Positions 323 to 13,904 of a stretch of DNA of 24,809 bases are shown piece by piece (position 1 is the first letter of the stretch; every line of letters begins with the position of its first letter). A program made the position numbers and the translations under genes. Below the pieces are notes generated by a model, which worked only from the letters and a program-made list of their open reading frames with translations, did not search any database and was not told where the DNA came from. Source of the stretch: an uncultured Elusimicrobia bacterium (GTDB lineage: Bacteria > Elusimicrobiota > Elusimicrobia > UBA1565); the NCBI GenBank assembly GCA_964359165.1, contig CAYHRV010000017.1, positions 1 to 24,809 on the forward strand. Direction: 5' to 3'.

Positions 323-1900
323 TCAGCTGGCGAGGATCTTCTCGGCCTCTTCCTTGTCGAGGTCCATCATCATCCGGATGCCGCTGATCTTGGAGGCTTC
401 CGGGGTGAGGGCGGCGATGTCATCGCGCTTGAAATGCTCCAGGGAGAACTTGCGCGCGCCGCACATCATCTGGCGCAAGCCCTGGGAGATCCTCTCGAGG
501 TAGGTGTAGACGCCCAGGGCCCCGGGCGGCACCTTCTCGAAGTCCTTACCCAGCTTCTCCTTGAGCTCCGAGGCGCAAACGAAGACCTCCTCGACCGAAT
601 TGCCGAAGCGCCCCACGAACACCGGCATGTCGCCGGAAGCGATGCGCTTGCCGATGGTCTTGGCCACCATGGCCGCGGTCAGCGGCGCGCGCGCCATCTC
701 GATGGCCTTGAAGTACGGGGCTCCCATGGCTAACCCTTTGAACATCTGGTCCTCGAAGGCGAAGCCCCCCGCGATGGCGATGTGCGGGACGAACTCGCCG
801 CGCTTGGCGAGCTTGTCGGCGTACTGATAGAGCAGGGAGAAGAGCTCCACCGGCGGCACGCCCCACTCGTTCATCATGCGCCAGGGGCTCATGCCCGTCC
901 CGCCTCCGGCGGCGTCGACGGTGAGCAGGTCGATCTTCCCCTTGGAGGAGAACTTGATGGCGCGCGCCAGGTCCGCCGGGCGATAGGCCCCGGTCTTGAG
1001 GAAGACGTGCTTGGCCCCGCAGTCGCGCAGTTCCTTGACGCGCTTGAGGAAGCCTTCCTCGCTGACCATCCCGACCCGGGAGTGCCTCTCGAACTCCTTG
1101 AAGGAGCCGCGGTCGAAGGCCTTGATGGTGCTCGGGGAGGCCGGGTCGGGGAGCACGATATAGCCGCGGTCCTTGAGTATCTGGGCCTTCTTGAGGCTCC
1201 CGATCTTCACCTCGCCGCCGATGTTCTTGGCACCCTGCCCCCACTTGAGCTCCACGGTGTCCACGCCCAGCTTGCTCACGGCGTACTCCTGCACGCCCAG
1301 GCGGCCGTCCTCCACGTTGGCCTGCACGACCACGGTCCCGTAGCCGTCCTGCCAGTCCTTGAAGAGCTTGACCCGGCGCGCGAGCTCCGGGGAGGAGACG
1401 ACGCGGCCCTTGACGATCTCGGCGTCCATGTCCATGCCGCAGACGTTCTCGCCGATGGTCAGGATGACGCCGGAGAGAGCCGCGCCCACCGCCAGCCCCT
1501 CCCAGTTCTTGGCCGCGATGTCGGTGGATCCCAGGCCGCCGAAGACCACGGGCAGGCGCACCTTCACCCCGGGGTTGTGCCCCAGGCGGGTCTCCAGCCG
1601 GACGTTGGGGAAGAGGGCCTTGTCGCTGTCGGCCTCGATGCCGTGCGCGCCCACGGCCCCGCCCATGATCTGGAAATGGGAGAGGTCCACGGGGTAGGAT
1701 TTCTCGGAGGCCGTGGTGATGATGCCGAAGGGTTGCGGGTAGATGACCTCGCTGCCGCGCAGGGCGGATTTGCCCACCTCGCACATGCCCACGCACCCGT
1801 CCACGCAGGTCACGCAGAGCCCGCTGTTGGGGGTGACGGACCCCACGGTCCGGTTCTTGGTCAAAGTCGCCGCCGTCGCGTTGTATTTGCTGTAGGCCAT
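323..1900 (-). CDS. FMN/Fe-S flavoprotein of the glutamate synthase large-subunit domain-2 (GltB FMN-binding) family
   Basis: 525 aa ORF. N-terminal Cys cluster CVTCVDGCVGMC. The central and C-terminal region (GGTGMSP, AIAGGF, Gly-rich stretches) matches the TIM-barrel FMN domain of glutamate synthase-related proteins. It is last in the co-directional array after the NuoEF-like genes. Confidence 0.75.
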   Translation of the reverse strand: MAYSKYNATAATLTKNRTVGSVTPNSGLCVTCVDGCVGMCEVGKSALRGSEVIYPQPFGIITTASEKSYPVDLSHFQIMGGAVGAHGIEADSDKALFPNVRLETRLGHNPGVKVRLPVVFGGLGSTDIAAKNWEGLAVGAALSGVILTIGENVCGMDMDAEIVKGRVVSSPELARRVKLFKDWQDGYGTVVVQANVEDGRLGVQEYAVSKLGVDTVELKWGQGAKNIGGEVKIGSLKKAQILKDRGYIVLPDPASPSTIKAFDRGSFKEFERHSRVGMVSEEGFLKRVKELRDCGAKHVFLKTGAYRPADLARAIKFSSKGKIDLLTVDAAGGGTGMSPWRMMNEWGVPPVELFSLLYQYADKLAKRGEFVPHIAIAGGFAFEDQMFKGLAMGAPYFKAIEMARAPLTAAMVAKTIGKRIASGDMPVFVGRFGNSVEEVFVCASELKEKLGKDFEKVPPGALGVYTYLERISQGLRQMMCGARKFSLEHFKRDDIAALTPEASKISGIRMMMDLDKEEAEKILAS

Positions 1901-1904
1901 GTCA

Positions 1905-1927
1905 GCATTCCCCCCGCGGGGGAATGC
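1905..1927 (-). promoter_or_regulatory. GC-clamped stem-loop (10-bp stem, 3-nt loop) ending 5 nt upstream of the GltB-like start codon
   Basis: Plus strand reads GCATTCCCCC-CGC-GGGGGAATGC, which can pair perfectly. It lies between the stop of the upstream gene (1997) and the ATG at 1900. Confidence 0.5.
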
Positions 1928-1996
1928 TCGTGGAGGGGCGTTGTTGCCGTTTCATAAGCCCCTTCCTTATTATTCCCTTTCCGCGATGTATTTTCT

Positions 1997-2668
1997 TCAT
2001 TTTCGTATGCAGGTTCCGCAACTGCCGGTCGTCCCCATGTAGCACATCAAGTCATCGTGCGGTTCCACGCAGGTCGGCTGGACGCTCATGCAGGAGCCGC
2101 AGATGTCCGTCGGCGGCTTGGGGCCGTGGCAGCGCAGGGTGCAGGCCGGGCAGACATACATGCAGCCTCCGCAGCGCCGGCAGCTCTGCGAGGGCTTGTC
2201 GAAAGGGGTGGTGATGCGCCGCTTGGCGCCGCGGCCCACGAAGTCGATGGCCCCGGCCATCATCTGCTCCTTGCACATGCGCACGCAGAGCCCGCAGAGC
2301 ACGCACTCCTCGTCGCGCGGAGGGAAGCGCTGGCGGCCGACGCCCATGAGCGCGGCCAGGTCCTGCAGGACCTTGGAGTTGGGGGCCGTGGAGAGCATGA
2401 GCTCCACGAGCATGCGCCGCGTCTTGAGCACCCGGCGCGAGCCCGTGCGCACGAAGAGCCCTTCCTCCGCCGGATAAGTGCAGGAGCTCACCAGGCGGCC
2501 CCGCTCCCCCTTGCCGATCTCGACTACGCAGAGGCGGCAGCCCCCGTAGGGCGTGAGGCCGTCCATGTGGCAGAGCGTGGGGATCTCCAGCCCCAGGAAG
2601 CGCGCGGCCTCCAGGACCGTGGTCCCGGGCTCCACCGACACATCCAACCCGTCTATTCGCAGATTCAT
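1997..2668 (-). CDS. 2Fe-2S plus two 4Fe-4S iron-sulfur protein resembling the N-terminal domains of NuoG/HndD/FdsA
   Basis: 223 aa. Plant-type 2Fe-2S pattern C-x10-C-x2-C-x13-C near the N-terminus, followed by CVLCGLCVRMC and CRRCGGCMYVCP 4Fe-4S motifs. No catalytic (molybdopterin or H-cluster) domain follows. Confidence 0.75.
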   Translation of the reverse strand: MNLRIDGLDVSVEPGTTVLEAARFLGLEIPTLCHMDGLTPYGGCRLCVVEIGKGERGRLVSSCTYPAEEGLFVRTGSRRVLKTRRMLVELMLSTAPNSKVLQDLAALMGVGRQRFPPRDEECVLCGLCVRMCKEQMMAGAIDFVGRGAKRRITTPFDKPSQSCRRCGGCMYVCPACTLRCHGPKPPTDICGSCMSVQPTCVEPHDDLMCYMGTTGSCGTCIRK

Positions 2669-2673
2669 ATCTC

Positions 2674-2698
2674 AGCGGCCCCCTCGCAGGGGGCTGCT
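2674..2698 (-). promoter_or_regulatory. Stem-loop (10 bp with one G-U pair, 5-nt loop) ending 6 nt upstream of the start codon at 2668
   Basis: Plus strand AGCGGCCCCC-TCGCA-GGGGGCTGCT, in the intercistronic gap between the NuoF-like stop and the NuoG-like start. Confidence 0.45.
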
Positions 2699-2739
2699 TC
2701 CTTCGGGGTGCGGGATCCGTTTCATCAGACGGTCCGTTT

Positions 2740-4656
2740 TCATATGACAAAAACCGCCTTGCTCTTGCAGACCTCCGCGCAGATGCCGCAGCGAATGCAA
2801 AGGGAATCGTCGACGCGGTGCGGCTTCTTCAACTCGCCGGAGATCGCCTTCTGCGGGCACTCCTTCTTGCAGAGCAGACAGCCGACGCAATGCTCCTCAT
2901 CGATGACGTAGCGGATGAGCGCCTTGCAGACCCCGGCGGTGCAGCGCTTGTCGCGGATGTGCGTCTCGTATTCCTTGCGGAAGTAGCGCAATGTGCTCAG
3001 CACCGGGTTGGCCGCGGTCTGTCCCAAGCCGCAGAGCGAGCTGTCCTTGACCACGGCCCCCAACTCCTCCAAGAGGGCGAGGTCCCCCTCCTTGCCCTTG
3101 CCCTCGCAGATGCGGTCGACGATCTCCCACATGCGCTGGGTGCCCTCGCGGCAGGGAAGGCATTTCCCGCAGGACTCCTCGCGCAGGAAGTTGAGGAAAT
3201 ACCGGGAGATGTCCACCATGCAGGTGGAATGGTCCATCACGATCATGCCGCCGGACCCCATGATGGAGCCGGCCTTGGCCAGGCTCTCGTAGTCCACCGG
3301 CAGGTCGAGGAGCTGCCGGGGCAGACAGCCTCCGCTGGGGCCGCCGGTCTGCACGGCCTTGAATTCCCCTTCGCCCCGGATGCCGCCGCCCACGCCGAAG
3401 ATGATGTCGCGCAGCGTGGTCCCTACGGGGACCTCGACGAGCCCGGTATTGACGACTTTCCCGACCAGCGAGAATATCTTGGTTCCGCCGCTCTCGGGCG
3501 TCCCGATCCGGCAAAACCAATGGCCGCCGCGCCGGATGATGAGGGGGATGTTGGCCCAGGTCTCCACGTTGTTGATGTTGGTGGGCTTGCCCCATAGTCC
3601 CCGCACCGCGGGGAAAGGCGGGCGCTGGCGCGGTTCGCCCCTGCGGCCTTCCAGCGAGGCGATGAGAGCCGTCTCCTCGCCGCACACGAAGGCGCCGGCT
3701 CCGCGCTCGATGTGGATGTCGAAATCGAACTTGGAGCCGAGGATGCCCTTGCCCAGCAGGCCGCGCTCGCGGGCCTGTTCCACAGCCAGGCGCACGTGCT
3801 TGACGGCGAGGGGATACTCGTAGCGCACATAGACGAAGCCCTCGGAGGCCCCGATGGCGTACGCGCCGATGATCATGCCCTCCAGAACAGAATGGGGGTT
3901 TCCCTCCAGCACGCTTCGGTCCATGTACGCGCCGGGGTCGCCCTCGTCCGCGTTGCAGACCACGTATTTGACCTCGCTCTTGGCCCTGCGGCAGAACTCC
4001 CATTTAAAGCCCGTCGGAAATCCCGCGCCGCCCCGTCCCCGGAGCTTGGCTTTCTTGACCTCACCGATGACGGCGTCCGGGGTCAGCTCATGCAGGGCCT
4101 TGGCCAAGGCCTGGTACCCACCCAGGGCGAGGTAACCCTCGATGTCGGAGGGGTCGACGAGGTCGTTGGCGCGCGTGATCTGCCTGCGCTGGAGCTTATA
4201 GAAAGGGATGTCGCTGGCGAAACGGACCGTCTGCCCGGTGTTGGGGTCCTTATAGAGGAGTTCCTCGATGACGTTGTTGCGCAGGATGGTCTCCGAGAGT
4301 ATCTCCTTGGCGTTCTCGGGCTTGACTCTCTGATACAGGATGCCGAGAGGGTCGACCTGGACGATGGGCTCTATGTCGCAGAAACCCTGGCAGCCCGTGG
4401 ACTGGATTAGGACGCGGCCCTCGAGTCCGAGGGCGGCGGCCTGCTCCTTGAGCGCGGAGGCGAGCTCCATGGCCCCTTTGGCCAAGCCGCAGGTGCCGCA
4501 CGAGACGGTCAGGGTGAAAGCGTAAGCTTCGCGCTCGCGCAGGATGCGCTCGCGCTCGCGGGAAAGCGCCTGCGGCCCGGAGAGCCTCTTCTCGGGTTTC
4601 TCCCCTCCGGGTCGGCGGCCGGCGCGGGCCTCAGTGCGCTTTAAAGAAAGTGCCAT
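2740..4656 (-). CDS. NuoF/HndC/HydB-type NAD(P)H-binding flavoprotein (51 kDa family) with an N-terminal thioredoxin-like 2Fe-2S domain and a C-terminal 2x[4Fe-4S] ferredoxin domain
   Basis: GGAGFPTGFKWEF NADH/FMN motifs, SCGKCLPCREG 4Fe-4S motif, and C-terminal CVGCLLCKKECP / CIRCGICAEVC. The track ORF extends to 4899, but the arginine-rich N-terminal extension is implausible. The in-frame ATG at 4656..4654 gives a NuoE-like N-domain (STGCQGFCDIEP) with the expected spacing, and overlaps the upstream gene by 26 nt. Confidence 0.85.
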   Translation of the reverse strand: MALSLKRTEARAGRRPGGEKPEKRLSGPQALSRERERILREREAYAFTLTVSCGTCGLAKGAMELASALKEQAAALGLEGRVLIQSTGCQGFCDIEPIVQVDPLGILYQRVKPENAKEILSETILRNNVIEELLYKDPNTGQTVRFASDIPFYKLQRRQITRANDLVDPSDIEGYLALGGYQALAKALHELTPDAVIGEVKKAKLRGRGGAGFPTGFKWEFCRRAKSEVKYVVCNADEGDPGAYMDRSVLEGNPHSVLEGMIIGAYAIGASEGFVYVRYEYPLAVKHVRLAVEQARERGLLGKGILGSKFDFDIHIERGAGAFVCGEETALIASLEGRRGEPRQRPPFPAVRGLWGKPTNINNVETWANIPLIIRRGGHWFCRIGTPESGGTKIFSLVGKVVNTGLVEVPVGTTLRDIIFGVGGGIRGEGEFKAVQTGGPSGGCLPRQLLDLPVDYESLAKAGSIMGSGGMIVMDHSTCMVDISRYFLNFLREESCGKCLPCREGTQRMWEIVDRICEGKGKEGDLALLEELGAVVKDSSLCGLGQTAANPVLSTLRYFRKEYETHIRDKRCTAGVCKALIRYVIDEEHCVGCLLCKKECPQKAISGELKKPHRVDDSLCIRCGICAEVCKSKAVFVI

Positions 4657-5038
4657 ACTTTTCGTAGAAGGTCTTGAGCTCCAGGTCCGGGTCCTCGAAT
4701 TCGATGAGGTGCTTCTTGCACCCCCGGCGTGAGCAGATCTGTATCGTCCCCCCCTCCGCCAAGGAGAACGCCACCATGGGCGCCTGGCAGATCTCGCAGT
4801 TCCTGGAGCTTTTGAGCCCTTCCTTGCAGTGGGGACAGAACAGGTCGCCGATCTTCCCGTCGGGGCAGACGATGTCCATCTCGACCTTGTAGCTCCCATA
4901 GAGCGAGCTCATGTGGAGCTTCCCCTTCTTCTTGCCGTAGCGGATCTCCACGGTGATGGCGGGGTGGTTGTCGATCTTGCGTTTGGAGTCCATCAAGGAC
5001 TCCGCGCACAGCGGGCACTTGAGTTCGACTTCGATCAT
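4631..5038 (-). CDS. Small Cys-rich (zinc-ribbon/rubredoxin-like) protein of unknown function
   Basis: 135 aa, 9 Cys arranged as CPLC..CPDG..CPHC..CEIC..CSRRGC. Lys-rich and noticeably lower GC than its neighbours. Its ATG overlaps the NuoE-like stop (ATGA), and its 3' end overlaps the NuoF-like start. Confidence 0.55.
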   Translation of the reverse strand: MIEVELKCPLCAESLMDSKRKIDNHPAITVEIRYGKKKGKLHMSSLYGSYKVEMDIVCPDGKIGDLFCPHCKEGLKSSRNCEICQAPMVAFSLAEGGTIQICSRRGCKKHLIEFEDPDLELKTFYEKYGTFFKAH

Positions 5039-5529
5039 TTCTTCGGCGCCTCCGATCTCTTGGCGAGCTTGCGCGCTCCCTGCGGGGTGACCTGGCCGTG
5101 ATATTTCCCGTCGGTGACGAGGACGGGGCCGATGGCGCAGCAGCCCAGGCAGTTGACGGTCTCCAGGGAGTATTCCCCGTCCCCCGTGGTCTCGCCGGGC
5201 CGGACGCCGAGCATTCGGCTGAGCTCGTCGACGACGCGGGTCACGCCGCGCACGTGGCAGGCCGTGCCGATGCAGGCGGTCAGAGTGTGGCGGCCCGGCT
5301 TGGTCAGACGGAACATCTTGTAGAAAGTGGCCACGCCATAGATCTCGGTGATCGGCGCGTCGAGGAACTGGGCCACCTGCCGCAGAGCCTCCTCCGGAAG
5401 ATAACCGAGCTCCTCCTGGATGTCCTGCAGGATGGAGATGAGCTCCCGCGAAAGGCCTTTATAGCGCCCCAGGATCGAATCGAGCTGTTTATCTCCCGAT
5501 TTAAACGGCTTTTTCAAGACAGTTTTCAT
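5035..5529 (-). CDS. NuoE/HoxE/HndA-type thioredoxin-like 2Fe-2S subunit (24 kDa family)
   Basis: 164 aa. CIGTACHVRG....CLGCCAIGP four-Cys pattern and overall NuoE-like sequence. Confidence 0.85.
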   Translation of the reverse strand: MKTVLKKPFKSGDKQLDSILGRYKGLSRELISILQDIQEELGYLPEEALRQVAQFLDAPITEIYGVATFYKMFRLTKPGRHTLTACIGTACHVRGVTRVVDELSRMLGVRPGETTGDGEYSLETVNCLGCCAIGPVLVTDGKYHGQVTPQGARKLAKRSEAPKK

Positions 5530-5587
5530 CGAACCATTAAGAAAGCAACAAAACCGCCAAACCCTCTCAGCAACGAGGTCTCTCCAT

Positions 5588-6943
5588 TCAGGCGATTATT
5601 TCTATTGGATGGCCCTTTCTTGAGACCTTTCCGGCGGACCTGGCCGCGAGGAGCGGATCATCAGACTCCATCCCCTCGCGCAGTTCCCAAACGGTAAGCA
5701 TCGGAAGGATGCGAGTGAAGAGCAGAAAGACCAAGAGGAATCCAGCGGCCCACCCCAGGGTGACGGACCATTCCACCCAGGAGGGGCTGTAATGGCCGGG
5801 CCCCCAGGGAAGGAAGGGCCTCGCGCCCGAAGGCACGATGATGGTGTATCTCTCCAACCACATCCCGAGATTCACGGAAAGACCGGCCCATAACAATCGG
5901 CTCTCCAGGGTGCCGATCCGGAAGGCCAGCAAAGGGAATGGGATGGCGAGGCAGAAGATGAGCATGCCCCAGAACCCCGGACCGAATTCTCCGCTCAGCT
6001 TGGCCTGGAACACTTCCATCTCCGCGGCATGCTGTCCATAGAAAGTGGTCAGGAGCTCCACGAAAGTGAAATATCCCCAGAAACAGCAGACCGCCAGGAA
6101 GAATTTTCGCAGGGCCTCGAATTCCGCCTCTCGGATGGCCCATTGGAAGCCGAACGATTTCCGCAGAAGCACCGCGATGGCGGCGAGTCCTCCGAGTCCC
6201 TGGAACGCGGCCCCGATGACGAAATAGGGGCCGATGGCGGCGGAATGCCAGCCGGGCTTGGTCGTCATGCCGAAGATGAATCCGACGTTGGTATGCACCG
6301 AGATGACGAGCGCGAGCAGAACGATGGAAAGGATGCTCATGAGCCGGTGATGGAGCCTCTCCTGGGCTTGGGTTCCCGTCCAGTCCAGGGCCGCCCAGCG
6401 GTAGAATCCACGCTGCCAGGCCGGGACGCCCTGGAGTCGGTCCCGGCAGAGAGCGAAGTCCGGGACGAGCGCGAGGTAGAAGTACAAACAGGACATGAGC
6501 AGATAGGTGGAGATGCACAGCACGTCCCATAGGATCGGCGAGGTCAGATGCGGATAGAGGATGACGTTCAGAAAACGGTCCGGCCGGCCCAGGTCGATGA
6601 TGACGCTGCTAGCCGCGAAGAATAGGCTGGCGATGGTGATGGTCTCCGCTATGCGGGTGAAAGGCCGCCTCCAGGCCGCGTCGGTGATGCGCAGGATGGC
6701 GGAGATGAGCGTGCCCGCGTGCGAGACCCCGATAAAGAAGACGAAGTTGACGATGTAGACTCCCCAGAACACGGGGACGCCGAGCCCGGTGACTTTCAGG
6801 CCGTTGAACACCTGCCAGAGCCAGGCGAGCGCCCCCCAGAGGAACAGGCCGCCCAAGACGGCGGCCGCGATAAGGAAACCCCCTCCCGGCTTGCTCGTCA
6901 GCGGCCGGAGCACCTCCGTCTCCATCTCGTGGATATCCATCAA
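5588..6943 (-). CDS. NrfD/PsrC-family polytopic membrane subunit (quinone-interacting anchor of CISM-type complexes)
   Basis: 451 aa, many hydrophobic helices, family-typical length and composition. The ATGA overlap with the preceding Fe-S subunit stop mirrors psrABC, qrcABCD and act operon layouts. Confidence 0.8.
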   Translation of the reverse strand: MMDIHEMETEVLRPLTSKPGGGFLIAAAVLGGLFLWGALAWLWQVFNGLKVTGLGVPVFWGVYIVNFVFFIGVSHAGTLISAILRITDAAWRRPFTRIAETITIASLFFAASSVIIDLGRPDRFLNVILYPHLTSPILWDVLCISTYLLMSCLYFYLALVPDFALCRDRLQGVPAWQRGFYRWAALDWTGTQAQERLHHRLMSILSIVLLALVISVHTNVGFIFGMTTKPGWHSAAIGPYFVIGAAFQGLGGLAAIAVLLRKSFGFQWAIREAEFEALRKFFLAVCCFWGYFTFVELLTTFYGQHAAEMEVFQAKLSGEFGPGFWGMLIFCLAIPFPLLAFRIGTLESRLLWAGLSVNLGMWLERYTIIVPSGARPFLPWGPGHYSPSWVEWSVTLGWAAGFLLVFLLFTRILPMLTVWELREGMESDDPLLAARSAGKVSRKGHPIEIIA

Positions 6944-7734: not shown

Positions 7735-9850
7735 ACACCCTTACCTTGGCCCGCCAAAGAGGCCGACCCGAAGGCTCGAAATTCCGTTTCACGAGCGCGG
7801 CGGGGTTGACGCCCACTCCCAGCGCGTAGCGCCCCATTGCCGTATGCCCCAGGCCCAGAGGCATGGCCACGGTGCTGGGATCGATGCCCGGGAAATACCG
7901 CGCCTTGGCCCGGACTCTTCCCGCGGGGGATTCCACCCAGACCTCCTTTCGGTCCTCGATGCCCAGTCTCTTGGCGGTGTCCGGATGTATCTCCAGCCAG
8001 CTTCCCCATTCCTCCCCCACGTGGATACCCGCCACGCTGTGCAGGTAGGGCAGGTGAGCCCCTTCTCCGAAGGAGAAGGCCAAGGGAACGAAGACTTGGA
8101 GGTCGAGCATATCATCGGAGGGCTCCGCGCGGACCGCGCGGTTGTTGAGCGCTTCGGCCGCGAAATGAAGGGCCGGGAAGGCGGCGCTGACGGTCGCGGC
8201 GGGCACGGCGGCGTAGCGCCGCCAGCCCCCTTCCCTCATCGCGGCCTCGGTCCCGGAACGGCCCGCCGCCTCCCCCAACGCCTCCACGAAATCCTTCCAG
8301 GGGAAAGCCTCGGCGATGCGCCGGTCCCCGAGGGAACGCGCCAGGCGCAGGATGAGGTCCCCGTGATCGCAGGTGTCGTGCATGGGAGCGATCACGGGCG
8401 GCGCGAAGCTCACCACCCCGTCGCCGTCGATGGTCCGGGTGAAGCCGTATTGCCACGCCTCCAGCCCGTGGTGTGGAGGGAGCACCAGGTCCGCCAGTTC
8501 CGAGGTCTCATCCAAAAAAGAAGAGAAGCTCACGATGAATGGGAGCGCACGCAGCGCCTGCCTCCACCGTTCCGGCTCCGGACTCAGGAAAACGGGGTTG
8601 ACCCGCTCGAGCCATAGAAGATCCAAACCGGAGCCCGAACCCAGGGATTCCGGCAGGCGGTGCGCGGAGTTTTCAAGGCGGGACTTAGGAGACGGCAAGC
8701 TCCCGCCGGGCAGCGACAGTTGGTGCCTCTCGGCCTCGCTCCACAGAACGCCTTGCCGCACTCCCACCGAGCCCAGCAGGACGTTGAGGCCATGGACGGC
8801 GACTTGGGTGAAAACCTCCCCGCGATTCGTGATCGCCAGGGCGGGGCGGATGTCGGCCATCTCCCGCGCGAGCTCGGCGATCTTGGCCCGCTCCACTCCC
8901 GTCTGCGCGGACACACTGTCGGGACCGTACTCCCGCAGCACCAGCTCGCGGTATTCCCGGAAGCCCCGAGTCCATCGCTTGACGAACGCCTCGTCATAGA
9001 GGCCTTCCGAAATCAGGATATGCGCCACCCCCAGAGCGAGCACGCCCTCGGTCCCGGGCCGGACCCGGACCCACTCATCGGCCTTGGAGGCCGTCACGGA
9101 TAGGCGCGGCTCGATCTGGACCATGCGGGTCCTGCGCTCCGCGCGCCCCCGCCGCAGGCGGCCGTAGGCCCGCTGGGCCTCGATGGGCGAAGGGAAGGCC
9201 TGAAGCCAGTCCCACCCGAAGGAGACGATGTGGTTGGCGTTGGTCAGGTCGTAGAAGAGCCCTTCCTCGGAGCCGTGCATGAGGCGAAAAGCGTCCGAAG
9301 GCCCCTCGCCCAGAGGCCAGTCCCATTCCCAATAATACGGGGTCCCGAGCGCCCGGGCGAAACGTTTCTGAAGTTCATGGCGGATGTCGCGGATAGGCGC
9401 CGCGAGCATGGCGAGGCGCTCGGGTTTATCGGCATCGAGCACTCCCGAGAGCCGCGTTCGCAGGATTCGCTCCGCTTCGTTCCAGGAGACCCTCTCCCAT
9501 CGCCCTTCCCCCCTCTCGCCCTTTCTCAGGATGGGGAAACGCAGGCGATCGGGATGATAGAGGTCCTGCAGGATGGCGCCGCCCTTGGGGCAGAGGGCTC
9601 CCCCGCTGACCGGATGGCCGGCCTTGCCGGAAACCCCCACCGGCTTGCCTTCCACCACTCGGATGTCCAGCATACAGAGGGCCGGACACAACTTGCAGAC
9701 CGCGGGGCGGCGGACATCGCTCTCCAAGAGCGCCGGCGGCCTTTCCCCCGGCGTAAGAACCCCCGCCCGCAGGGCCTGCGGCAGGGCGCTCGCCGCGCCC
9801 AGCAGCCCTCCCCACTTCAGGAAATTCCGTCTGGATATCTCGGGGTTCAT
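7724..9850 (-). CDS. Tat-exported molybdopterin-oxidoreductase-family large subunit (Psr/Phs/Qrc/ActB1-like)
   Basis: Start taken at ATG 9850 (MNPEISRRNFLKWGG, Tat motif), 5 nt after the cytochrome stop. FS0-type motif C-x2-C-x3-C...C-P-K-G is present. Length ~708 aa. No Cys was seen in the region where Cys/SeCys molybdenum ligands usually sit, so cofactor status is uncertain. Confidence 0.8.
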   Translation of the reverse strand: MNPEISRRNFLKWGGLLGAASALPQALRAGVLTPGERPPALLESDVRRPAVCKLCPALCMLDIRVVEGKPVGVSGKAGHPVSGGALCPKGGAILQDLYHPDRLRFPILRKGERGEGRWERVSWNEAERILRTRLSGVLDADKPERLAMLAAPIRDIRHELQKRFARALGTPYYWEWDWPLGEGPSDAFRLMHGSEEGLFYDLTNANHIVSFGWDWLQAFPSPIEAQRAYGRLRRGRAERRTRMVQIEPRLSVTASKADEWVRVRPGTEGVLALGVAHILISEGLYDEAFVKRWTRGFREYRELVLREYGPDSVSAQTGVERAKIAELAREMADIRPALAITNRGEVFTQVAVHGLNVLLGSVGVRQGVLWSEAERHQLSLPGGSLPSPKSRLENSAHRLPESLGSGSGLDLLWLERVNPVFLSPEPERWRQALRALPFIVSFSSFLDETSELADLVLPPHHGLEAWQYGFTRTIDGDGVVSFAPPVIAPMHDTCDHGDLILRLARSLGDRRIAEAFPWKDFVEALGEAAGRSGTEAAMREGGWRRYAAVPAATVSAAFPALHFAAEALNNRAVRAEPSDDMLDLQVFVPLAFSFGEGAHLPYLHSVAGIHVGEEWGSWLEIHPDTAKRLGIEDRKEVWVESPAGRVRAKARYFPGIDPSTVAMPLGLGHTAMGRYALGVGVNPAALVKRNFEPSGRPLWRAKVRVYAA

Positions 9851-9855
9851 GTCGG

Positions 9856-10362
9856 CTATCGGTGGCAGGCCAGGCAATCGGTGGTGACCCCCTCCTTCTT
9901 ATGGCAGTCCACGCAGGCGGACATGCTCAAGGGCGCCAGCCGGCGCGTCAGCGCGCGCTCCGTCGAAGCCACGTCCCCATGGCAGGCCTTGCAGTCGAGC
10001 TTTCCGTCCCCCGCGTGCCGCTTATGCGAGAAGAGGACATGGCTCGGCGTCCGATAGATCCGCCGCCAGGGGATCTCCTTGCGCTCGCGCAGGAACTCCG
10101 CCAAGTCCTCCGGGGTCCTCGGCGCGGCCTTGCCCGGGTCATGGCAGAGGGCGCAGATGCGCATCTCCGGGATGCCGGCGCGCGCGTCCTCCTTGGCTCC
10201 CGCATGGCACCCGGCGCATTCGATTCCGAAGTCCGCGTGCTTCTTATGGTTGAAGGAAATGGGCTGGGGAGTGCCCCAGGAGCTCCAAGCCCAGAAAAGA
10301 GTCCCGGCCGCGACCAGGGCGACGAAGAGCAGGGACCCCGCGGCCGACAATATCTCCCTCAT
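9856..10362 (-). CDS. Membrane-anchored multiheme cytochrome c (five CxxCH motifs)
   Basis: 168 aa. N-terminal TM helix LLFVALVAAGTLFWAW, then CAGCH, CALCH, CKACH, CVDCH, CLACH. Its position directly upstream of the large subunit resembles QrcA/ActA. Confidence 0.85.
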   Translation of the reverse strand: MREILSAAGSLLFVALVAAGTLFWAWSSWGTPQPISFNHKKHADFGIECAGCHAGAKEDARAGIPEMRICALCHDPGKAAPRTPEDLAEFLRERKEIPWRRIYRTPSHVLFSHKRHAGDGKLDCKACHGDVASTERALTRRLAPLSMSACVDCHKKEGVTTDCLACHR

Positions 10363-10391: not shown

Positions 10392-11276
10392 TTACCCCCC
10401 CGCCTCCGTTTTAGGCGGGCGGCCGAACTCCTTGGCCAGCGCCGTCAGCCCGGACATGGCTCCCAAGCCCATGGTCTCCACGGCGCTGGAGGGGACGACC
10501 ACGATGGTGGAATTCTGCCGCATGCCTTCCAAGAGTATGTTCATGGCCCGAAGGTGCAGGGCCACGGGGTTCTCGGCGTAGGACTGGGAGGCCTGCTTGA
10601 ACTTGCCCGCGATCTGGAGCTCCGAGTCTCCGAGGATGACGCGCGCCTGGCGTTCGCGCTCCGCCTGGGCCTGCATGGACATCGCGTCCTGCAGCGCTTC
10701 GGGGATCTTGACGTCGCGGATCTCCACCGACAGGGCCTGAATGCCCCAAGCCGCGGTCCTTTGCTCGATCATCTGCCGGAGCTTGACGTCTATCTCCTGG
10801 CGGCCGATGAGCATCTTGGCCAGGTCCGTCTCTCCGATCGCGTCGCGCAGAGCGGTCTGGGAGGCCCAGGCGATGGCCTGGCGGTAGTCCTCCACCTCCA
10901 GGGCCGCTTTGACGGGGTCTATGACGCGCCAAAACAGCACGGCGTCCACGTCCACCGGCACGCTGTCCTTGGTGAGGGTGCGCTCCGCGGCGAAAGGCGT
11001 GGTGACCGTCCTCATGTCGATCCAATAGGGGATGGTGTCCAGGCCGGGGGCGACGCCGAATATCCCGGGGCCGCGCAATCCGTGGAATTTGCCGAGCCTC
11101 AGGATGACGGCCTTCTGCCATTGCCGGGCCACGCGCAAGCCCAGGAGCACGAACGCCCCCGCGGCCAAGCCCACAAGAGCCGGCAGGGGGTGTCCCGTGC
11201 GGGCGCTCAAAGCCCCGCCCAGCCCCGCCAGCAATGCGAACAGCGTCAACGTCAATGGATGTATGCCCATCGTCAT
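10392..11276 (-). CDS. SPFH/band-7 (stomatin/prohibitin-like) membrane protein
   Basis: 294 aa. N-terminal TM segments followed by a typical SPFH domain (VILRLGKF...RTLTKD...DAVLFWRV...EIRDVKIP...). A TAGGAGG RBS overlaps the upstream stop. Confidence 0.85.
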   Translation of the reverse strand: MTMGIHPLTLTLFALLAGLGGALSARTGHPLPALVGLAAGAFVLLGLRVARQWQKAVILRLGKFHGLRGPGIFGVAPGLDTIPYWIDMRTVTTPFAAERTLTKDSVPVDVDAVLFWRVIDPVKAALEVEDYRQAIAWASQTALRDAIGETDLAKMLIGRQEIDVKLRQMIEQRTAAWGIQALSVEIRDVKIPEALQDAMSMQAQAERERQARVILGDSELQIAGKFKQASQSYAENPVALHLRAMNILLEGMRQNSTIVVVPSSAVETMGLGAMSGLTALAKEFGRPPKTEAGG

Positions 11277-11282
11277 CGCCTC

Positions 11283-11813
11283 CTAATCCGTCGTTCCCTC
11301 GTCCGCAGCGCCCTCCCCGCTCTTTCCGGGCGGCCCCTTGATGCTGAAGAGATATTTCGCCAAGTCCTCCGTCTCCTCGGCGGTCAGTATCTTCCGCCAG
11401 GACGGCATGTCCAGGGGTGGTTCGGGCTCGGCCTCGTCGAGTTTGGCCGGGTGCCCCCCCTTAAGAAGCTTGCCCTTTAGGTCGGCGCGGGTGAAGGCAT
11501 CGGCCAAGTCCTCGAGGTTAGGGACCATCCCCTCGGGGTCGGCGTTCGGGTTCTTGACCCCGCCCCGGCCCTGGGGGCCGTGGCAGACCCCGCAGCGCAA
11601 GGCCCGGTAGATGCGGCGTCCCCGGAGGATGTCCTTATCCCACGCGCTTTCGGACCCGGCCGGTTCCGCCGCGAATGCCTGGGTCGTGGGCGTTATGGCC
11701 CACCGGGGGCTCCATAACCGCGCCCGCCAGCCCAGGAAGCCGTAGAACCCGAAGATGCCGGCCCAGGCGCCCGCGACCAAAACGATCAGCCCGAGCGCTC
11801 CCGCGTCTTTCAT
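11283..11813 (-). CDS. Membrane-anchored monoheme class-I c-type cytochrome
   Basis: 176 aa. N-terminal hydrophobic anchor, single CGVCHG heme motif, downstream Met (DMPSW) as a candidate axial ligand. Confidence 0.75.
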   Translation of the reverse strand: MKDAGALGLIVLVAGAWAGIFGFYGFLGWRARLWSPRWAITPTTQAFAAEPAGSESAWDKDILRGRRIYRALRCGVCHGPQGRGGVKNPNADPEGMVPNLEDLADAFTRADLKGKLLKGGHPAKLDEAEPEPPLDMPSWRKILTAEETEDLAKYLFSIKGPPGKSGEGAADEGTTD

Positions 11814-11825
11814 CGCCGTCGGGGC

Positions 11826-12263
11826 CTACTTGCCCCCCGCTTCCTTTTCCTTGAGTTTCCTATCGATCAGCTCCTTCTTGCGGACCGAGGAATCGTAGAT
11901 CAGGAAGTCGATGATCTTCGTGGCGCTTTTCGCGTTGAGGCCGGAACGCTTCTTTTTCTGCATCTTCTTGACATAAGGGTCCCACTCCTCGGGCAAGGCA
12001 TAGGGCGAATTGACGGCTCGCGCCAAGGTGTGGCATTTGGAGCACCGCACGGCGAAAGTCTTGTAATTTTCCTGCTGTTCCTGGGGATATTTTGAGACGT
12101 CTATCTCAATGGGCCCCTTGTCCCAGGGGAACTCCTTTTCGCCGGCTTTCGCCGCCTCGTCCTTGGCGGTCTCTTTCTTGGCCTCGTTCTGAGCGATGGC
12201 GGCTGAAACAGCGAGTCCGAACACAAAGCACAGGCTCAAGAAGATTTCCCTATTCCCCCTCAT
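11826..12263 (-). CDS. Secreted monoheme c-type cytochrome (Lys-rich C-terminus)
   Basis: The track ORF extends to 12452, but the internal ATG at 12263 is preceded by a strong AAAGGAGG RBS and starts a signal peptide MRGNREIFLSLCFVFGLAVSAAIA. Single CSKCH motif. Confidence 0.7.
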   Translation of the reverse strand: MRGNREIFLSLCFVFGLAVSAAIAQNEAKKETAKDEAAKAGEKEFPWDKGPIEIDVSKYPQEQQENYKTFAVRCSKCHTLARAVNSPYALPEEWDPYVKKMQKKKRSGLNAKSATKIIDFLIYDSSVRKKELIDRKLKEKEAGGK

Positions 12264-12464
12264 ACAAAGCCTCCTTTGCGGCAAATCGGTGCGGCCGGCC
12301 CCGAACACGGAACGGGCTTCCCCGATGTCTCGGGATCGGGGCGCGCGCTCACGGAGGCCGGCAAGGGCTCTTGGGGGGCCCCGCCTGTTTCCACGCGCGC
12401 CGCGCCGGCCGGACCGCCGCGGGCGGACGCATTCTCGCCCGCGGCGGTCCAAGAGTCCGACGGC

Positions 12465-13742
12465 CTAGAAGCCCAACTCCACCTGCGCCGTCCAGCGGGT
12501 GTCCTTCGTCTGCTTGACGCCCGCCTTATTGTCCGAGAGTTCATCGTAATACTCCACGAAGGTCCGGACGTTCTCCATGGGGTAATAAGCCAAGCTGGCG
12601 ACGAGGTGGTTCTGCTTCCTGTCGAGGAACTTATCCTTGACGCTGTCGAAACGGACCAGGGGGACGATCCACGGGCGCTCATTCTTCTTGAAGGTATAGA
12701 ACGCCTCGCCGTATCCTCCCGTATTGTCCGCTTTCAGCACCCCGGTCGCGTCCGCCTCTTTCTTGGCGCTCATGAGCGCCGCTCGGATGCCGAAATCCTT
12801 GAACTCCGCCAGGGCGTCCACGGCGAAGGCCTGGATCTTGTTGATCGGCGTTCCCGTCTCGTTCTTGCTCGTCAGGTCATCCTTCCCATACTGGAAGTAG
12901 CCGCCCAAGGCCAGCCCCTTAAGCGTGTCGGCCACCAGCCTGACATTGTAGTTCGGCGGGCCGTAGCCCTCCTGGGCCTTGGTGCCGGCCGTCGCGGCGG
13001 CCGCTCCCCCTCCGACTCCGAACGCGTAGCCCAGGGCCCCTACCCCCTCCCGACTCAACTCACCCCGCAAGGCCAGGTACTGCTGGTCCAGCATGAGCAG
13101 GGTTCGAGCGTCGCTGGCCCGGCGCGTCCAGCCGCTGTGGGCAAGCGTTTGATACGGGTCGACGCGGTGCAGGAAGTCGCCGAAACCGGCTATCACATTG
13201 AAATACGGATTCGGGTGGTAGCCCAAGGAGAGGTCCGCGACCTCCATCTCGAACCCCGTCCCGGCGTCGTCCTCCGCTTCGATCTCCGTGAAGTAGGAGA
13301 AGTTCTTGGCCACGCTTCCGTCGGCCACGAACAGCTCCAGCTCATGAAGGGCCCTGTTCTGGATCTTCCGGGGAGTCCCGCTTGATTTTTGCTTGTCGAT
13401 CGGCCGCGCCTTGACCAGCCCCCCCCAGGGGAAATCTTTGGGGAGCATCATGTCGCTGGCCTCGATCCGGACTCCTTCTTCTTTCGCTCTCTCCCGGACA
13501 AAGCCGTTGTTCTTGAACTCACGGCCGTAGTCGTTGAGGAGCGGATAGGCAGCGTGGCACTGGGAACAGCTGATGCCGTATTTCCTGGAGAAGGCCGGCA
13601 CCGCCTGCGCCTGCGCCACCGCGCCCGGCCGCACCGGACACAAGCCCAATATCTTCTGGCTCAACGGCGGCAGCACCCAAGCCGCCGCCAGAACCGCCAG
13701 CGCGAATACCGCAGTGAACCGGCCCCTTCTTTGACTCATCAT
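12465..13742 (-). CDS. Cyc2-like fused cytochrome-porin: signal peptide, a single CxxCH heme motif, then an outer-membrane beta-barrel
   Basis: Start chosen at the ATGATG at 13742, with GGAGGG directly upstream. Signal peptide with AQAQA cleavage-type site. CSQCH lies within ~20 residues of the mature N-terminus. The next ~380 aa have alternating Gly/aromatic-rich beta-strand character and a C-terminal Phe (VELGF), typical of OM beta-barrels. Size (~425 aa) matches the Cyc2 family. Confidence 0.65.
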   Translation of the reverse strand: MMSQRRGRFTAVFALAVLAAAWVLPPLSQKILGLCPVRPGAVAQAQAVPAFSRKYGISCSQCHAAYPLLNDYGREFKNNGFVRERAKEEGVRIEASDMMLPKDFPWGGLVKARPIDKQKSSGTPRKIQNRALHELELFVADGSVAKNFSYFTEIEAEDDAGTGFEMEVADLSLGYHPNPYFNVIAGFGDFLHRVDPYQTLAHSGWTRRASDARTLLMLDQQYLALRGELSREGVGALGYAFGVGGGAAAATAGTKAQEGYGPPNYNVRLVADTLKGLALGGYFQYGKDDLTSKNETGTPINKIQAFAVDALAEFKDFGIRAALMSAKKEADATGVLKADNTGGYGEAFYTFKKNERPWIVPLVRFDSVKDKFLDRKQNHLVASLAYYPMENVRTFVEYYDELSDNKAGVKQTKDTRWTAQVELGF

Positions 13743-13764
13743 TCCCTCCATGGAACGGCTGACC

Positions 13765-13779
13765 GCACCCCGCGGGTGC
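13765..13779 (-). promoter_or_regulatory. Short GC hairpin (GCACCC-CGC-GGGTGC) in the predicted 5' UTR of the Cyc2-like gene
   Basis: Perfect 6-bp stem with 3-nt loop, between the candidate sigma-54 promoter and the RBS. Shares the CCC-GCG-GGG core with the other hairpins. Confidence 0.4.
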
Positions 13780-13800
13780 GAAAACATCCGGGAATACATG

Positions 13801-13818
13801 CGCAACGCCTTGGCCGGG
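13801..13818 (-). promoter_or_regulatory. Candidate sigma-54 (-24/-12) promoter for the Cyc2-like operon
   Basis: Minus strand reads cccGGCCAaggcgTTGCg. GG and GC have the canonical spacing of TGGCAC-N5-TTGCW. It lies ~60 nt upstream of the ATG at 13742, and a sigma-54 activator gene is adjacent. Confidence 0.45.
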
Positions 13819-13904
13819 AAGACCGCGCATTAAATAAGGATTAAACGCGGATGAAGCCCGCCGTTTTCAACCGGCTTGGAAACGGATTCAGGTCTATTGG
13901 AAGA

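Follow-up and report, generated by a model that had tools for sequence, protein, structure and literature searches.

The array of thirteen genes at positions 323 to ~13742 of the window, a stretch of 24,809 nucleotides from an uncultured Elusimicrobia bacterium, probably consists of two functional units that are neighbours in this single genome: a sigma-54-regulated, envelope-spanning unit (unit 1), with a Cyc2-like cytochrome-porin and a Qrc-like inner-membrane complex, and an unrelated, soluble unit of the Bfu type (unit 2, 323-5529). Unit 1, made up of a histidine kinase/response regulator pair and the eight genes at 5588-13742 (module 1), is an envelope-spanning electron-transfer cluster conserved in groundwater Elusimicrobia. 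At least seven Elusimicrobia loci have all eight genes, in most cases accompanied by this sigma-54 kinase/regulator pair and by a -24/-12 element that is conserved as well, whereas the last five genes (module 2) are never linked to them in any related locus. An earlier note on this DNA had described the whole array as a single mega-operon; the synteny found in related genomes bears this out for the first eight genes and not for a co-conserved unit of thirteen.

As the earlier note had observed, all thirteen genes are co-directional; they lie on the minus strand, as do all other features of the window for which coordinates are given below. From the Cyc2-like gene to that of the FMN TIM-barrel protein the intergenic gaps are, in operon order, 201, 12, 6, 29, -22, -11, -4, 58, -4, ~-25, 71 and 96 nt. 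The first gene starts at ~13742 and not at 13830 as had been proposed, the ATG at 13830 belonging to a spurious overlapping frame. Pfam and NCBIfam profiles confirm the domain assignments, with Cytochrom_C, Band_7, a five-CXXCH QrcA-like cytochrome, Tat-signal Molybdopterin, Fer4_11 FeS and NrfD in module 1, and 2Fe-2S_thioredx, Complex1_51K, Fer2_4 and Glu_synthase in module 2; corrections concern the location of one monoheme cytochrome and the label of the last protein (see below). Codon use is even along the whole contig, which is therefore not an assembly chimera.

The first gene (12465..13742) yields no Pfam or NCBIfam match, and yet its 425 aa product can be assigned to the Cyc2 family of fused monoheme cytochrome-porins, as had been claimed. 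The published Cyc2 criteria place it there, as do its motif and length, and it shares with the iron oxidases A. ferrooxidans Cyc2, Leptospirillum Cyt572 and Mariprofundus Cyc2 PV-1 (Keffer et al. 2021, PMC8406198) a signal peptide, one CXXCH, the AxPxF[A/S]R[Q/K][T/Y] motif ahead of the heme-binding residues with PxL behind them, a length above 365 aa, a 16-stranded OprP-like barrel, which is also obtained in its model, and a C-terminal aromatic residue; it differs in reading FSR where the published motif has FAR. Its profile matches Cyc2-like ORFs from known iron-oxidiser lineages, and there is homology to the region in Elusimicrobia MAG 13 that holds its Cyc2-like gene. Unlike known Cyc2, it belongs to a distinct, Elusimicrobia-centred subfamily of ~160 clusters at 50% identity (E<1e-30), versus 4304 in the wider family, and good alignment with sequences from Zetaproteobacteria and Chlorobium is limited to the N-terminal 100-150 residues. 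Within the 201-nt gap that follows, 12 nt past the stop codon, lies a strong hairpin with a 17-bp G+C stem and no U-tract (12405..12452; -58.6 kcal/mol over 91 nt, z = -3.2). Orthologues also show a 150-200-nt gap at this place, and the hairpins there are weak.

Concerning the two monoheme cytochromes, both are present, although only one is freely periplasmic as the earlier note had it for the pair. CytA (11826..12263) is small and secreted, with a CSKCH site, a signal peptide and a weak SorB-like match, and is the most constant genomic partner of the Cyc2-like gene, which it adjoins in nearly all three Elusimicrobia clades. CytB (11283..11813; Pfam Cytochrom_C, Cytochrome_CBB3) is a class I cytochrome anchored in the membrane by an N-terminal hydrophobic helix, with orthologues 57-66% identical. 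The SPFH/Band 7 membrane protein that follows (10392..11276; stomatin/HflK-like, Pfam Band_7, 113 bits) is the best conserved of the cluster, with 74-85% identity; its gene is missing from locus L013 and from the clade 2 loci.

The next four genes encode the module of CISM type that had been proposed to follow Cyc2, and place it in the Qrc/ACIII family, QrcA, QrcB and QrcC being the best NCBIfam matches; it should be noted that all matches to QrcA-D are under the NCBI equivalog cutoffs. The membrane-anchored pentaheme cytochrome (9856..10362; five CXXCH, N-terminal helix, Pfam Cytochrome_C7) aligns with QrcA over its full length at 90 bits (cutoff 180). The Tat-exported molybdopterin-family subunit (7724..9877; Pfam TAT_signal, Molybdop_Fe4S4, Molybdopterin, Molydop_binding) has QrcB as its top match at 286 bits (cutoff 440). 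The four-cluster FeS subunit of QrcC/DsrO/NrfC type (6940..7734; Tat signal with RRNFL motif, Pfam Fer4_11) matches QrcC at 264 bits (cutoff 400) and DsrO at 196 bits (cutoff 200). The NrfD/PsrC-family integral membrane, quinone-interacting subunit (5588..6943; Pfam NrfD, 106 bits) has ~9-10 hydrophobic segments and weak matches to DsrP and QrcD.

This arrangement resembles the menaquinone reductase QrcABCD of sulfate-reducing Desulfobacterota, which has the same four subunits in matching order: a membrane-anchored multiheme cytochrome, a ligand-less Tat molybdopterin-like subunit, a four-cluster FeS protein and an NrfD-type protein. It differs in that the cytochrome has five hemes and not six, the FS0 cysteines are kept in the molybdopterin-like subunit, whereas QrcB is described as devoid of any redox cofactor, and the NrfD subunit scores higher against DsrP than against QrcD. 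Here the complex is accompanied by Cyc2 and class I cytochromes, the partners of Qrc being cytochrome c3, hydrogenase or formate dehydrogenase, and the organism, unlike Qrc hosts, is not a sulfate reducer. ACIII (ActABCDEF) likewise joins periplasmic cytochromes to the quinone pool through pentaheme cytochrome, molybdopterin-like, FeS and NrfD subunits, but in the window B1 and B2 are each encoded by a gene of their own, ActD, ActE and ActF are absent and the SPFH gene has no ACIII counterpart.

From these memberships an electron path can be proposed. In the outer membrane, the Cyc2-like porin would exchange electrons with a soluble partner outside the cell, most likely Fe(II), and pass them to cytA. 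One branch would lead from cytA to cytB, presumably toward a terminal oxidase or reductase encoded elsewhere. The other would enter the Qrc-like complex, where the pentaheme cytochrome, a cofactor-less molybdopterin-like scaffold with one [4Fe-4S], the four-cluster FeS protein and NrfD would connect it to the menaquinone pool, uphill and with the assistance of the pmf if Fe(II) is the donor. The SPFH protein would probably act as a scaffold or stabiliser of the membrane complex. Against this path stand the uncertain function of Cyc2 homologues beyond Cluster 1 and the lack of terminal oxidase and carbon-fixation genes on the contig.

The direction of flow cannot be read from the sequence; Qrc reduces menaquinone and ACIII oxidises quinol. 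We also considered an outward path, in which the Qrc/ACIII-like complex oxidises menaquinol and the cytochromes and Cyc2-like porin deliver the electrons to a soluble acceptor outside the cell, for instance humic quinones, Mn(III) or chelated Fe(III). ACIII, to which Qrc is most closely related, is a quinol:cytochrome c oxidoreductase, and an ACIII-like fused ActB lies beside the Cyc2-like gene and cytA in the second Elusimicrobia clade; multihemes of c3/c7 type, as matched here by Pfam, are typical of reductive extracellular electron transfer, and the authors of the Cyc2 study allow that Cyc2 may do more than iron oxidation (PMC8406198). However, all biochemically tested members of the family (A. 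ferrooxidans Cyc2, Cyt572 and Cyc2 PV-1) are Fe(II) oxidases (PMC8406198), and the best family matches of the complex are to Qrc, a quinone reductase, and not to ACIII. Moreover, the gene for an Fe(II) transporter, FeoB, after the cluster in locus L006 fits an Fe(II)-rich niche, and the related MAG 13 was abundant at 403 uM Fe(II) and low O2. The outward path is thus unlikely, and inward flow from Fe(II) is the direction we favour.

Regulation of unit 1 by an adjacent sigma-54 two-component system, as claimed earlier, agrees with the genes directly upstream. An NtrC-type response regulator (13905..15326; Pfam Response_reg, Sigma54_activat at 218 bits, HTH_8) pairs with a sensor histidine kinase (15323..16861; Pfam HisKA, HATPase_c and a weak 6TM_PilS) whose several hydrophobic segments form a PilS-like multi-pass membrane domain. 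Most orthologous loci keep the regulator ahead of their Cyc2-like gene, the cluster is preceded by kinase orthologues (52-66% identity) in L001, L003, L005 and L006, the last with an additional Sigma54_DBD gene between kinase and regulator, and MAG 13 has a sigma-54 regulator near its Cyc2-like gene. The putative promoter of module 1, CGGCCAAGGCGTTGCG (13800..13815), has a -24/-12-like element at 13802-13815 and lies ~60-75 nt upstream of the Cyc2-like start, and TGGCC(A/G)-N5-TTGC-like elements occur 58-160 nt upstream in L001, L005, L016, L019, L030 and L031. Sigma-54 control, as the earlier note had claimed it, is plausible and recurs in orthologous loci; that one such promoter drives all thirteen genes is unlikely. 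A further motif match, TGGCCAAGATGTTGCC (16877..16892), lies just upstream of the kinase gene, where position and orientation would fit autoregulation.

Unit 2 corresponds to a predicted soluble electron-bifurcating core of BfuABC type (HydBC-like) together with an FMN TIM-barrel protein. It contains a BfuC/NuoE/HoxE-like [2Fe-2S] thioredoxin-like subunit (5035..5529; Pfam 2Fe-2S_thioredx, 154 bits; NCBIfam HoxE and NuoE under cutoff); a small Cys-rich protein with CxxC pairs and no significant Pfam or NCBIfam match (4631..5038), probably a zinc ribbon and an optional member, present in L008, L170 and 11 of the 52 metagenome loci; a BfuB-type NuoF homologue (2740..4655); a short BfuA-like FeS subunit of NuoG N-terminal/HoxU type (1997..2668; Pfam Fer2_4, Fer4_7); and the FMN TIM-barrel protein (323..1900), of the 'FMN-binding glutamate synthase family'. 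By its Pfam architecture the BfuB-type protein starts with a thioredoxin-like [2Fe-2S] domain, continues with an FMN/NADH domain and ends in a 2x[4Fe-4S] ferredoxin domain. Among solved structures it is closest to BfuB from enzymes that bifurcate electrons (7t2r_B with 796 bits, followed by 8a6t_B, 9mqx_B and 9n5u_B), whereas complex I Nqo1 scores ~400 bits. The BfuA-like subunit resembles type 2 BfuA, the closest solved structure being WorA of WorABCSL (9mqx_A, E 4.5e-39). As in the BfuABC family (HydABC, NiFe-HydABCSL, NfnABC/Stn, WorABCSL; Schut et al. 2022, PMC9304861), a BfuB with additional N-terminal [2Fe-2S] and C-terminal 2x[4Fe-4S] is thus combined with BfuC, a WorA-like BfuA of type 2, which is short and has a Cys-rich tail, and an extra subunit for the third-substrate site; unlike in the types named in the main text of that work, the extra subunit is an FMN TIM-barrel/FeS protein. 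The latter had been called GltB-like; it does match Glu_synthase, but over part of PF01645 only, and with its invariant N-terminal CxxCxxxCxxxC motif it is structurally nearer to IDI-2, alpha-hydroxy-acid dehydrogenases and IMPDH than to GltB. It is presumably the third-substrate subunit, at which unit 2 would be expected to connect NAD(H) and ferredoxin with that substrate. A further difference from the known Bfu types is that many loci encode BfuB as a fusion with a GltD-like domain.

The earlier note had continued the path, within one sigma-54 operon of thirteen genes, from Cyc2 by way of the Qrc-like complex and then the quinone pool into these NuoEF/GltB-like proteins, ending in NAD(P)H or reduced ferredoxin. 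Genomic context makes this improbable. Bfu/GltB genes are found in none of the ~25 Cyc2-like loci with enough flank, where NrfD is followed by ResB/CcsA/HemA, a second NrfD and FeoB, MgtE or opposite-strand genes, and none of 82 GltB-like loci has any gene of module 1, Cyc2 and Qrc genes included. Unit 2 stands alone in 51 of the 52 metagenome loci, from many phyla, as well as in L008, L009 and L170, and in close Elusimicrobia relatives the five-gene module is likewise by itself, preceded by a divergent gene. No membrane segments are predicted in the proteins of unit 2, and it has no membrane or quinone-binding subunit, so that nothing ties this free-standing enzyme to the quinone pool. Tight co-directional spacing and uniform codon use agree with a single operon, and a ferredoxin-reducing Bfu-type enzyme might well serve a lithoautotroph; because no terminator is predicted in the 58-nt NrfD-NuoE gap, read-through co-expressing both units in this organism is possible. 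Yet the same gap holds a candidate promoter, TGGCGGTTTTGTTGCT (5544..5559), and in L170, where the flavoprotein module is by itself, TGGCTGTTCCGTTGCG precedes the NuoE-like gene by 57 nt. These matches no more than suggest a separate promoter for unit 2, as chance matches to such motifs are many in this G+C-rich DNA. A truncated antiporter-like gene past the GltB-like gene marks a rearrangement.

Returning to unit 1, alignment shows that the molybdopterin-like subunit has a Leu where ArrA and acetylene hydratase have a metal-ligand Cys, and orthologues keep both this Leu and the four FS0 Cys, so the subunit is probably without a Mo/W active site and retains the cysteines for FS0 [4Fe-4S]. That it is instead an active periplasmic reductase of Psr/Phs/Arr type (polysulfide, thiosulfate, arsenate), with the heme-porin a mere accessory channel for substrate or electrons, is very hard to sustain: PhsA (247 bits) and ArrA (178 bits) are also matched, ArrA is the closest solved relative, and the Pfam Molybdopterin and Molydop_binding domains, Tat signal and FS0 cysteines are in place, but the clade 2 proteins also lack the Cys, QrcB is the best and sole full-length NCBIfam match, and a pentaheme QrcA-like partner and Cyc2/cytochrome linkage are, to our knowledge, foreign to Psr, Phs and Arr operons.

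A final point is related to the novelty of unit 1, which the earlier note overstated because a partnership between Cyc2 and ACIII, a Qrc relative, had already been suggested for iron oxidisers. Contrary to its view that known partners are not ACIII-like, ACIII (Mob/ActB) was put forward in this role in Mariprofundus (PMC10654088), and in Sideroxydans ES-1 it is strongly induced by Fe(II) and proposed to operate in reverse (PMC8788666). For Sideroxydans ES-1, Gallionella and Zetaproteobacteria, proteobacterial iron oxidisers, the ACIII-Cyc2 link is deduced from expression and not from a shared cyc2 operon, and an operon that physically joins Cyc2 with Qrc/ACIII is not described in the literature searched. 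As far as that literature goes, the physical linkage of Cyc2 with Qrc/ACIII-type genes is new, as a variation on a known theme, and electrons would flow through it in the direction that we infer above.

Comparison with related loci showed that the thirteen-gene array, which the earlier note had read as one operon, splits into two independently conserved modules, both on the minus strand. The description of gene content and layout was accurate, the array domains being borne out by Pfam and NCBIfam, but the first gene starts at about 13742 and not at 13830. The first module comprises a heme-porin (425 aa, 12465-13742), the small secreted monoheme cytochrome cytA (11826-12263), the membrane-anchored class I monoheme cytochrome cytB (11283-11813), an SPFH/Band 7 protein (10392-11276), a membrane-anchored pentaheme cytochrome (9856-10362), a molybdopterin-family protein (7724-9877) and an FeS protein (6940-7734), both with a Tat signal, and an NrfD protein (5588-6943). 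The second runs from a NuoE-like gene to the gene of a 525-aa FMN protein. Gaps 3' of the heme-porin are, in operon order, 201, 12, 6, 29, -22, -11, -4, 58, -4, about -25, 71 and 96 nt.

The heme-porin has no match in Pfam or NCBIfam, hence its identity was tested by motif, structure model and profile searches. Cyc2 proteins as defined by Keffer et al. (PMC8406198) have a signal peptide, one CXXCH, the motif AxPxFAR[Q/K][T/Y] before the heme site and PxL after it, a length of 365 residues or more and an OprO/OprP-like barrel of 16 strands. In agreement with the signal peptide and single heme, the window protein shows a single N-terminal hydrophobic segment and a single CXXCH at residue 59, the latter invariant across 34 homologues. 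Its motif region reads AVPAFSRKY-GIS-CSQCH-AAY-PLL, which we count as the published AxPxFAR/PxL signature; FSR stands where most homologues have FAR, so that a strict PxFAR filter would skip this protein by one residue. Motif-to-heme spacing is the same as in ORFs of Zetaproteobacteria and Ignavibacteria, and the length and the modelled 16-stranded, OprO/OprP-like porin also fit the published description. A profile of the heme-porin family, used as a stand-in for the FeGenie Cyc2 cluster HMMs, matches single-heme ORFs of 400-490 aa with the same motif (E 1e-16 to 1e-29) in several lineages, among them Zetaproteobacteria, Chlorobium sp. N1, Nitrospirae and Ignavibacteria. A further match is the locus of MAG 13, an Elusimicrobia genome which provides the one prior mention of Cyc2 in this group, based on BLAST and tree analysis. 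Taken together, the published motif, length and barrel features and the profile matches support the proposal that the first gene encodes a predicted Cyc2-type cytochrome-porin. The word-indexed homologue search yielded 33 relatives, and the full HMMER scan showed a far larger family, with 4304 representative clusters at E<=1e-3 and 162 at E<=1e-30, from which we take the heme-porin to belong to a distinct subfamily of a large family (the genome scan used alignment A1, the broader alignment A2 being too diverse). The closest relatives belong to groundwater Elusimicrobia MAGs.

Synteny was assessed on contigs carrying heme-porin homologues and by tblastn of 15 window proteins (the 13 array genes, the adjacent kinase and the regulator) against 88 loci. 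The eight genes from heme-porin to NrfD keep their order in the relative loci L001/L002, L003, L005, L006, L007 and L013, with heme-porin identity down to 38%; the SPFH gene is missing in L013, and contig ends cut L005 and L014. The same kinase and regulator lie upstream in most of these loci. The genes from NuoE to the FMN protein were never found 3' of NrfD in them, this position being occupied by ResB/CcsA/HemA, a second NrfD plus FeoB, MgtE, or genes on the opposite strand. The most conserved product of the cluster is the SPFH/Band 7 protein (74-85% identity versus 38-73% for the heme-porin), and we know of no part played by SPFH genes in Qrc or ACIII operons. A second Elusimicrobia clade (L015, L017 and L030-L033) combines a Cyc2-like gene, cytA and a multiheme cytochrome with a more divergent complex, which in L030 can be described as ACIII-like, since a fused 1008-aa ActB-like subunit is followed there by a poly-cytochrome c; this clade has no SPFH gene. 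A third clade, including MAG 13, keeps only the Cyc2-like gene and cytA, with a sigma-54 activator nearby. In the literature searched, no Cyc2 gene was found to share a cluster with a complex of the Qrc-like or ACIII-like kind, cytochromes of its own, SPFH and a sigma-54 two-component system. As far as this literature goes, the Cyc2 plus Qrc-like cluster is hence new as a linkage, whereas Cyc2 in Elusimicrobia has been noted before and ACIII has already been proposed as a Cyc2 partner.

Some individual loci show further features. L006 carries ResB/CcsA immediately 5' of its Cyc2-like gene and, after the cluster, the second NrfD gene and the FeoB Fe(II) transporter (18200-21242). The nearest relative, L001, has a second molybdopterin/FeS/NrfD (522 aa)/multiheme cluster at 1-5508, about 5 kb upstream of the kinase, and thus these genomes carry several NrfD-type complexes.

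Concerning the membrane complex of the first module, its subunit order (multiheme cytochrome, molybdopterin-like, FeS and NrfD, from 10362 to 5588, with overlapping stop/start codons) is that of QrcABCD, and the best NCBIfam matches, aligned over the full length, are QrcA, QrcB and QrcC. The CISM-type module suspected downstream of the heme-porin is therefore borne out, as a Qrc-like one. All scores lie below the equivalog cutoffs (90 bits against 180 for QrcA, 286 against 440 for QrcB, 264 against 400 for QrcC and 35 against 570 for QrcD), hence the complex should be called Qrc-like and not a Qrc orthologue; the NrfD subunit scores higher with DsrP than with QrcD. In the alignment, the Cys that binds Mo or W in ArrA and acetylene hydratase corresponds to a Leu in the molybdopterin-family subunit, consistent with absence of either metal, and this Leu is kept in the orthologues together with the four FS0 [4Fe-4S] cysteines and the twin-arginine motif. 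The Leu at the metal-ligand position suggests that the subunit most likely has a scaffold role without catalysis, as in QrcB or ActB1, and the four conserved FS0 cysteines that it probably retains one FeS cluster. QrcB is different in the latter respect, being described as free of any redox cofactor, with neither Mo/W-pterin nor FeS cluster. An active reductase of the Psr/Phs/Arr type was rejected because of the absent metal-ligand Cys. The window also departs from ACIII, having separate genes for the molybdopterin-like and FeS proteins instead of a fused ActB (B1+B2), and a single NrfD subunit with neither ActD nor ActF, where ACIII has two NrfD-type subunits (ActC and ActF), ActD and the monoheme ActE; the solved ActB chains 6f0k_B and 6btm_B match the window subunit only weakly. 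It should be noted that ACIII is already an established hypothesis as a partner of Cyc2, so the earlier note was incorrect in holding that the known Cyc2 partners exclude ACIII-like complexes.

The second module encodes a NuoE-like protein (BfuC, 5035-5529), a 135-aa Cys-rich protein (4631-5038), a NuoF-like protein (BfuB, 2740-4655), a 223-aa HoxU/NuoG-N-like protein (BfuA, 1997-2668) and the 525-aa protein (323-1900). The last has thousands of relatives with 68-87% identity, spread over Elusimicrobia, Aminicenantes, WOR-3, KSB1, Acetothermia, Aerophobetes, Theionarchaea and other phyla. Among 52 metagenome loci with enough upstream sequence, a NuoE-like gene lies 5' of it in 51, a HoxU-like gene directly upstream also in 51, and a NuoF-like gene between these two in at least 40; in many loci BfuB carries a fused GltD-like domain. 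Genes of the Cyc2/Qrc-like module are absent from all 82 loci checked for them, and the Elusimicrobia contig L170, with 80% identity, has this set of five genes on its own, preceded by a divergent gene. In Pfam, the NuoF-like protein has a thioredoxin-like [2Fe-2S] domain at its N-terminus, followed by an FMN/NADH domain and, at the C-terminus, a 2x[4Fe-4S] domain, and it aligns in full length with the solved BfuB chains 7t2r_B, 8a6t_B, 9mqx_B and 9n5u_B at 700-800 bits, versus about 400 bits for Nqo1 of complex I. The window has both a BfuB-type protein and a BfuC subunit, as in the BfuABC family. BfuA, the subunit that connects to a third-substrate module, is also represented: the nearest match of the HoxU-like protein, which ends in a Cys-rich tail, is WorA, a short BfuA of type 2 from WorABCSL (9mqx_A, E 4.5e-39 over residues 3-181).

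The label GltB-like for the last gene reflects a partial Glu_synthase match, but the protein does not show the domain set of a glutamate synthase large subunit (amidotransferase, central, FMN/3Fe-4S and GXGXG domains), and its fold is closer to IDI-2, the alpha-hydroxy-acid dehydrogenases and IMPDH than to GltB. The Bfu survey of Schut et al. (2022, PMC9304861) mentions no FMN TIM-barrel/FeS partner of this kind in its main text, and the literature search for an enzyme joining NuoEF with a GltB-like protein returned nothing relevant. The module looks like an uncharacterised class of Bfu-family enzyme, encoded by a very widespread and highly conserved operon, also represented by loci L008, L009 and L089-L170, and expected to couple NAD(H), ferredoxin and a third substrate in the cytoplasm. 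No credible membrane segment was found in any of its five proteins, and it contains nothing able to react with the membrane. The single 'complete electron path' through all thirteen genes is thus not supported, as the genes of the second module were never found beside Cyc2 or Qrc-like genes in the other loci examined and their products lack membrane segments.

Right after the stop codon of the FMN protein gene, a minus-strand ORF (1-322) corresponds to a NuoM/NuoN/MnhD-type antiporter subunit over its C-terminal third alone, covering Proton_antipo_M profile positions 198-285 of 294 before it leaves the contig end. This truncated gene abutting the second module points to a local rearrangement with a breakpoint near 300-325. 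A chimeric contig or a recent foreign origin of the Bfu block was rejected in view of uniform GC3 and RSCU along the contig. At the other side, 16963-24671 holds housekeeping genes, with a TlyA/FtsJ-like S4 methyltransferase, an EVE-domain protein and a LigT 2'-5' RNA ligase on the plus strand, and a hemolysin-III family protein, argH, an M20 peptidase (argE-like), argB and argF on the minus strand. Rfam and tRNA scans of the window gave no match.

Regulation may depend on the genes upstream of the array, which encode a histidine kinase (15323-16861, minus) and an NtrC-type sigma-54 activator (13905-15326, minus). Upstream of the heme-porin start, at a distance of 60-75 nt, there is a -24/-12-like element (CGGCCAAGGCGTTGCG), and six orthologous loci have related TGGCC(A/G)-N5-TTGC elements similarly placed. 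Another sigma-54-like -24/-12 element (16877-16892, minus), about 16 nt 5' of the start of the kinase gene, suggests autoregulation, with the two-component system under sigma-54 control as well. The simple sigma-54 pattern is no more frequent in the whole window than by chance (5 observed versus 3 expected), and matches scoring 8 of 11 are numerous in this G+C-rich DNA; the promoter calls therefore rest on position, orientation, conservation and the adjacent sigma-54 activator. Sigma-54 control, as originally proposed, is in this way made plausible by a predicted element and an adjacent activator kept in orthologues, and not by the motif count. In L006 a Sigma54_DBD (rpoN-like) gene lies between kinase and regulator (4166-5308). 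The 58-nt gap before the NuoE-like gene contains TGGCGGTTTTGTTGCT, and in L170 a similar element precedes the NuoE-like gene by 57 nt, suggesting a possible separate promoter for the second module. No terminator was predicted in this NrfD/NuoE gap, so read-through between the modules is possible.

Other intergenic gaps contain hairpins. A perfect 17-bp G+C hairpin without U-tract (12405-12452, minus) lies 12 nt after the Cyc2-like stop, in the 201-nt gap; orthologous loci have a gap of 150-200 nt at the same place, with weak hairpins. A conserved terminator or attenuator was accordingly rejected, since the strong structure of the window has no significant counterpart in the orthologues. In the window, it may act as an mRNA-stabilising or attenuating element that sets the porin-to-complex stoichiometry. 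The gaps before the HoxU-like (2669-2739, minus) and FMN protein (1901-1996, minus) genes hold one perfect G+C hairpin each; the two hairpins are GCAUUCCCCC-GCG-GGGGGAAUGC and GCAGCCCCCU-GCG-AGGGGGCCGC, both folding more stably than shuffled controls (z -2.6 and -2.3).

In the best-supported model, the first module connects the menaquinone pool with a soluble redox species outside the cell. The steps from Fe(II) to menaquinone are inferred by analogy with the three biochemically tested members of the Cyc2 family, all of which are Fe(II) oxidases (PMC8406198). Fe(II) would reduce the porin-bound heme, cytA, the most constant partner gene product, would ferry electrons over the periplasm, cytB may supply a terminal oxidase whose genes lie elsewhere, and menaquinone would receive electrons at the NrfD subunit through the pentaheme cytochrome and FeS chain. 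If Fe(II) is the donor, this last step would be uphill and need pmf, as proposed for a reverse-running ACIII in Sideroxydans (PMC8788666). The opposite flow, from quinol out through the first module to an extracellular acceptor, would be thermodynamically easier, and Qrc and ACIII illustrate that one architecture can serve opposite reactions; we nevertheless consider this direction unlikely. A bolder reading, in which the neighbouring Bfu enzyme is co-expressed in this one lineage and turns the captured reducing power into reduced ferredoxin, has little backing from the synteny data. Returning to inward flow, we tentatively propose, as a possible rather than a probable assignment, that the eight-gene cluster is a self-contained, envelope-spanning oxidoreductase between Fe(II) (or another soluble metal) and menaquinone, with dedicated cytochromes, a possible SPFH scaffold and a new Qrc-like complex.

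The route from Cyc2 to the quinone pool, the uphill branch that serves NADH and carbon fixation, is an open point in neutrophilic iron oxidation, and a role of ACIII with Cyc2 has so far been suspected from expression data only. The repeated clustering of a Cyc2-family gene with a Qrc-like complex, and with an ACIII-like one in a sister clade, both accompanied by dedicated cytochromes and a sigma-54 two-component system, provides independent, synteny-based support for this suspected link, and the compact set of about 8 kb could be expressed heterologously, which makes it testable. At the same time, the 'mega-operon' is removed as a false lead and a widespread Bfu-type enzyme with an uncharacterised FMN subunit is brought out. 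To our knowledge, the Elusimicrobia are a phylum with no cultured iron oxidiser; our results add support to the idea that some of its groundwater members perform extracellular iron redox chemistry, for which a report on one MAG was the previous basis. If the model is true, these Elusimicrobia would hold the first case of Cyc2 and a quinone-reactive NrfD-type complex fixed in one operon.
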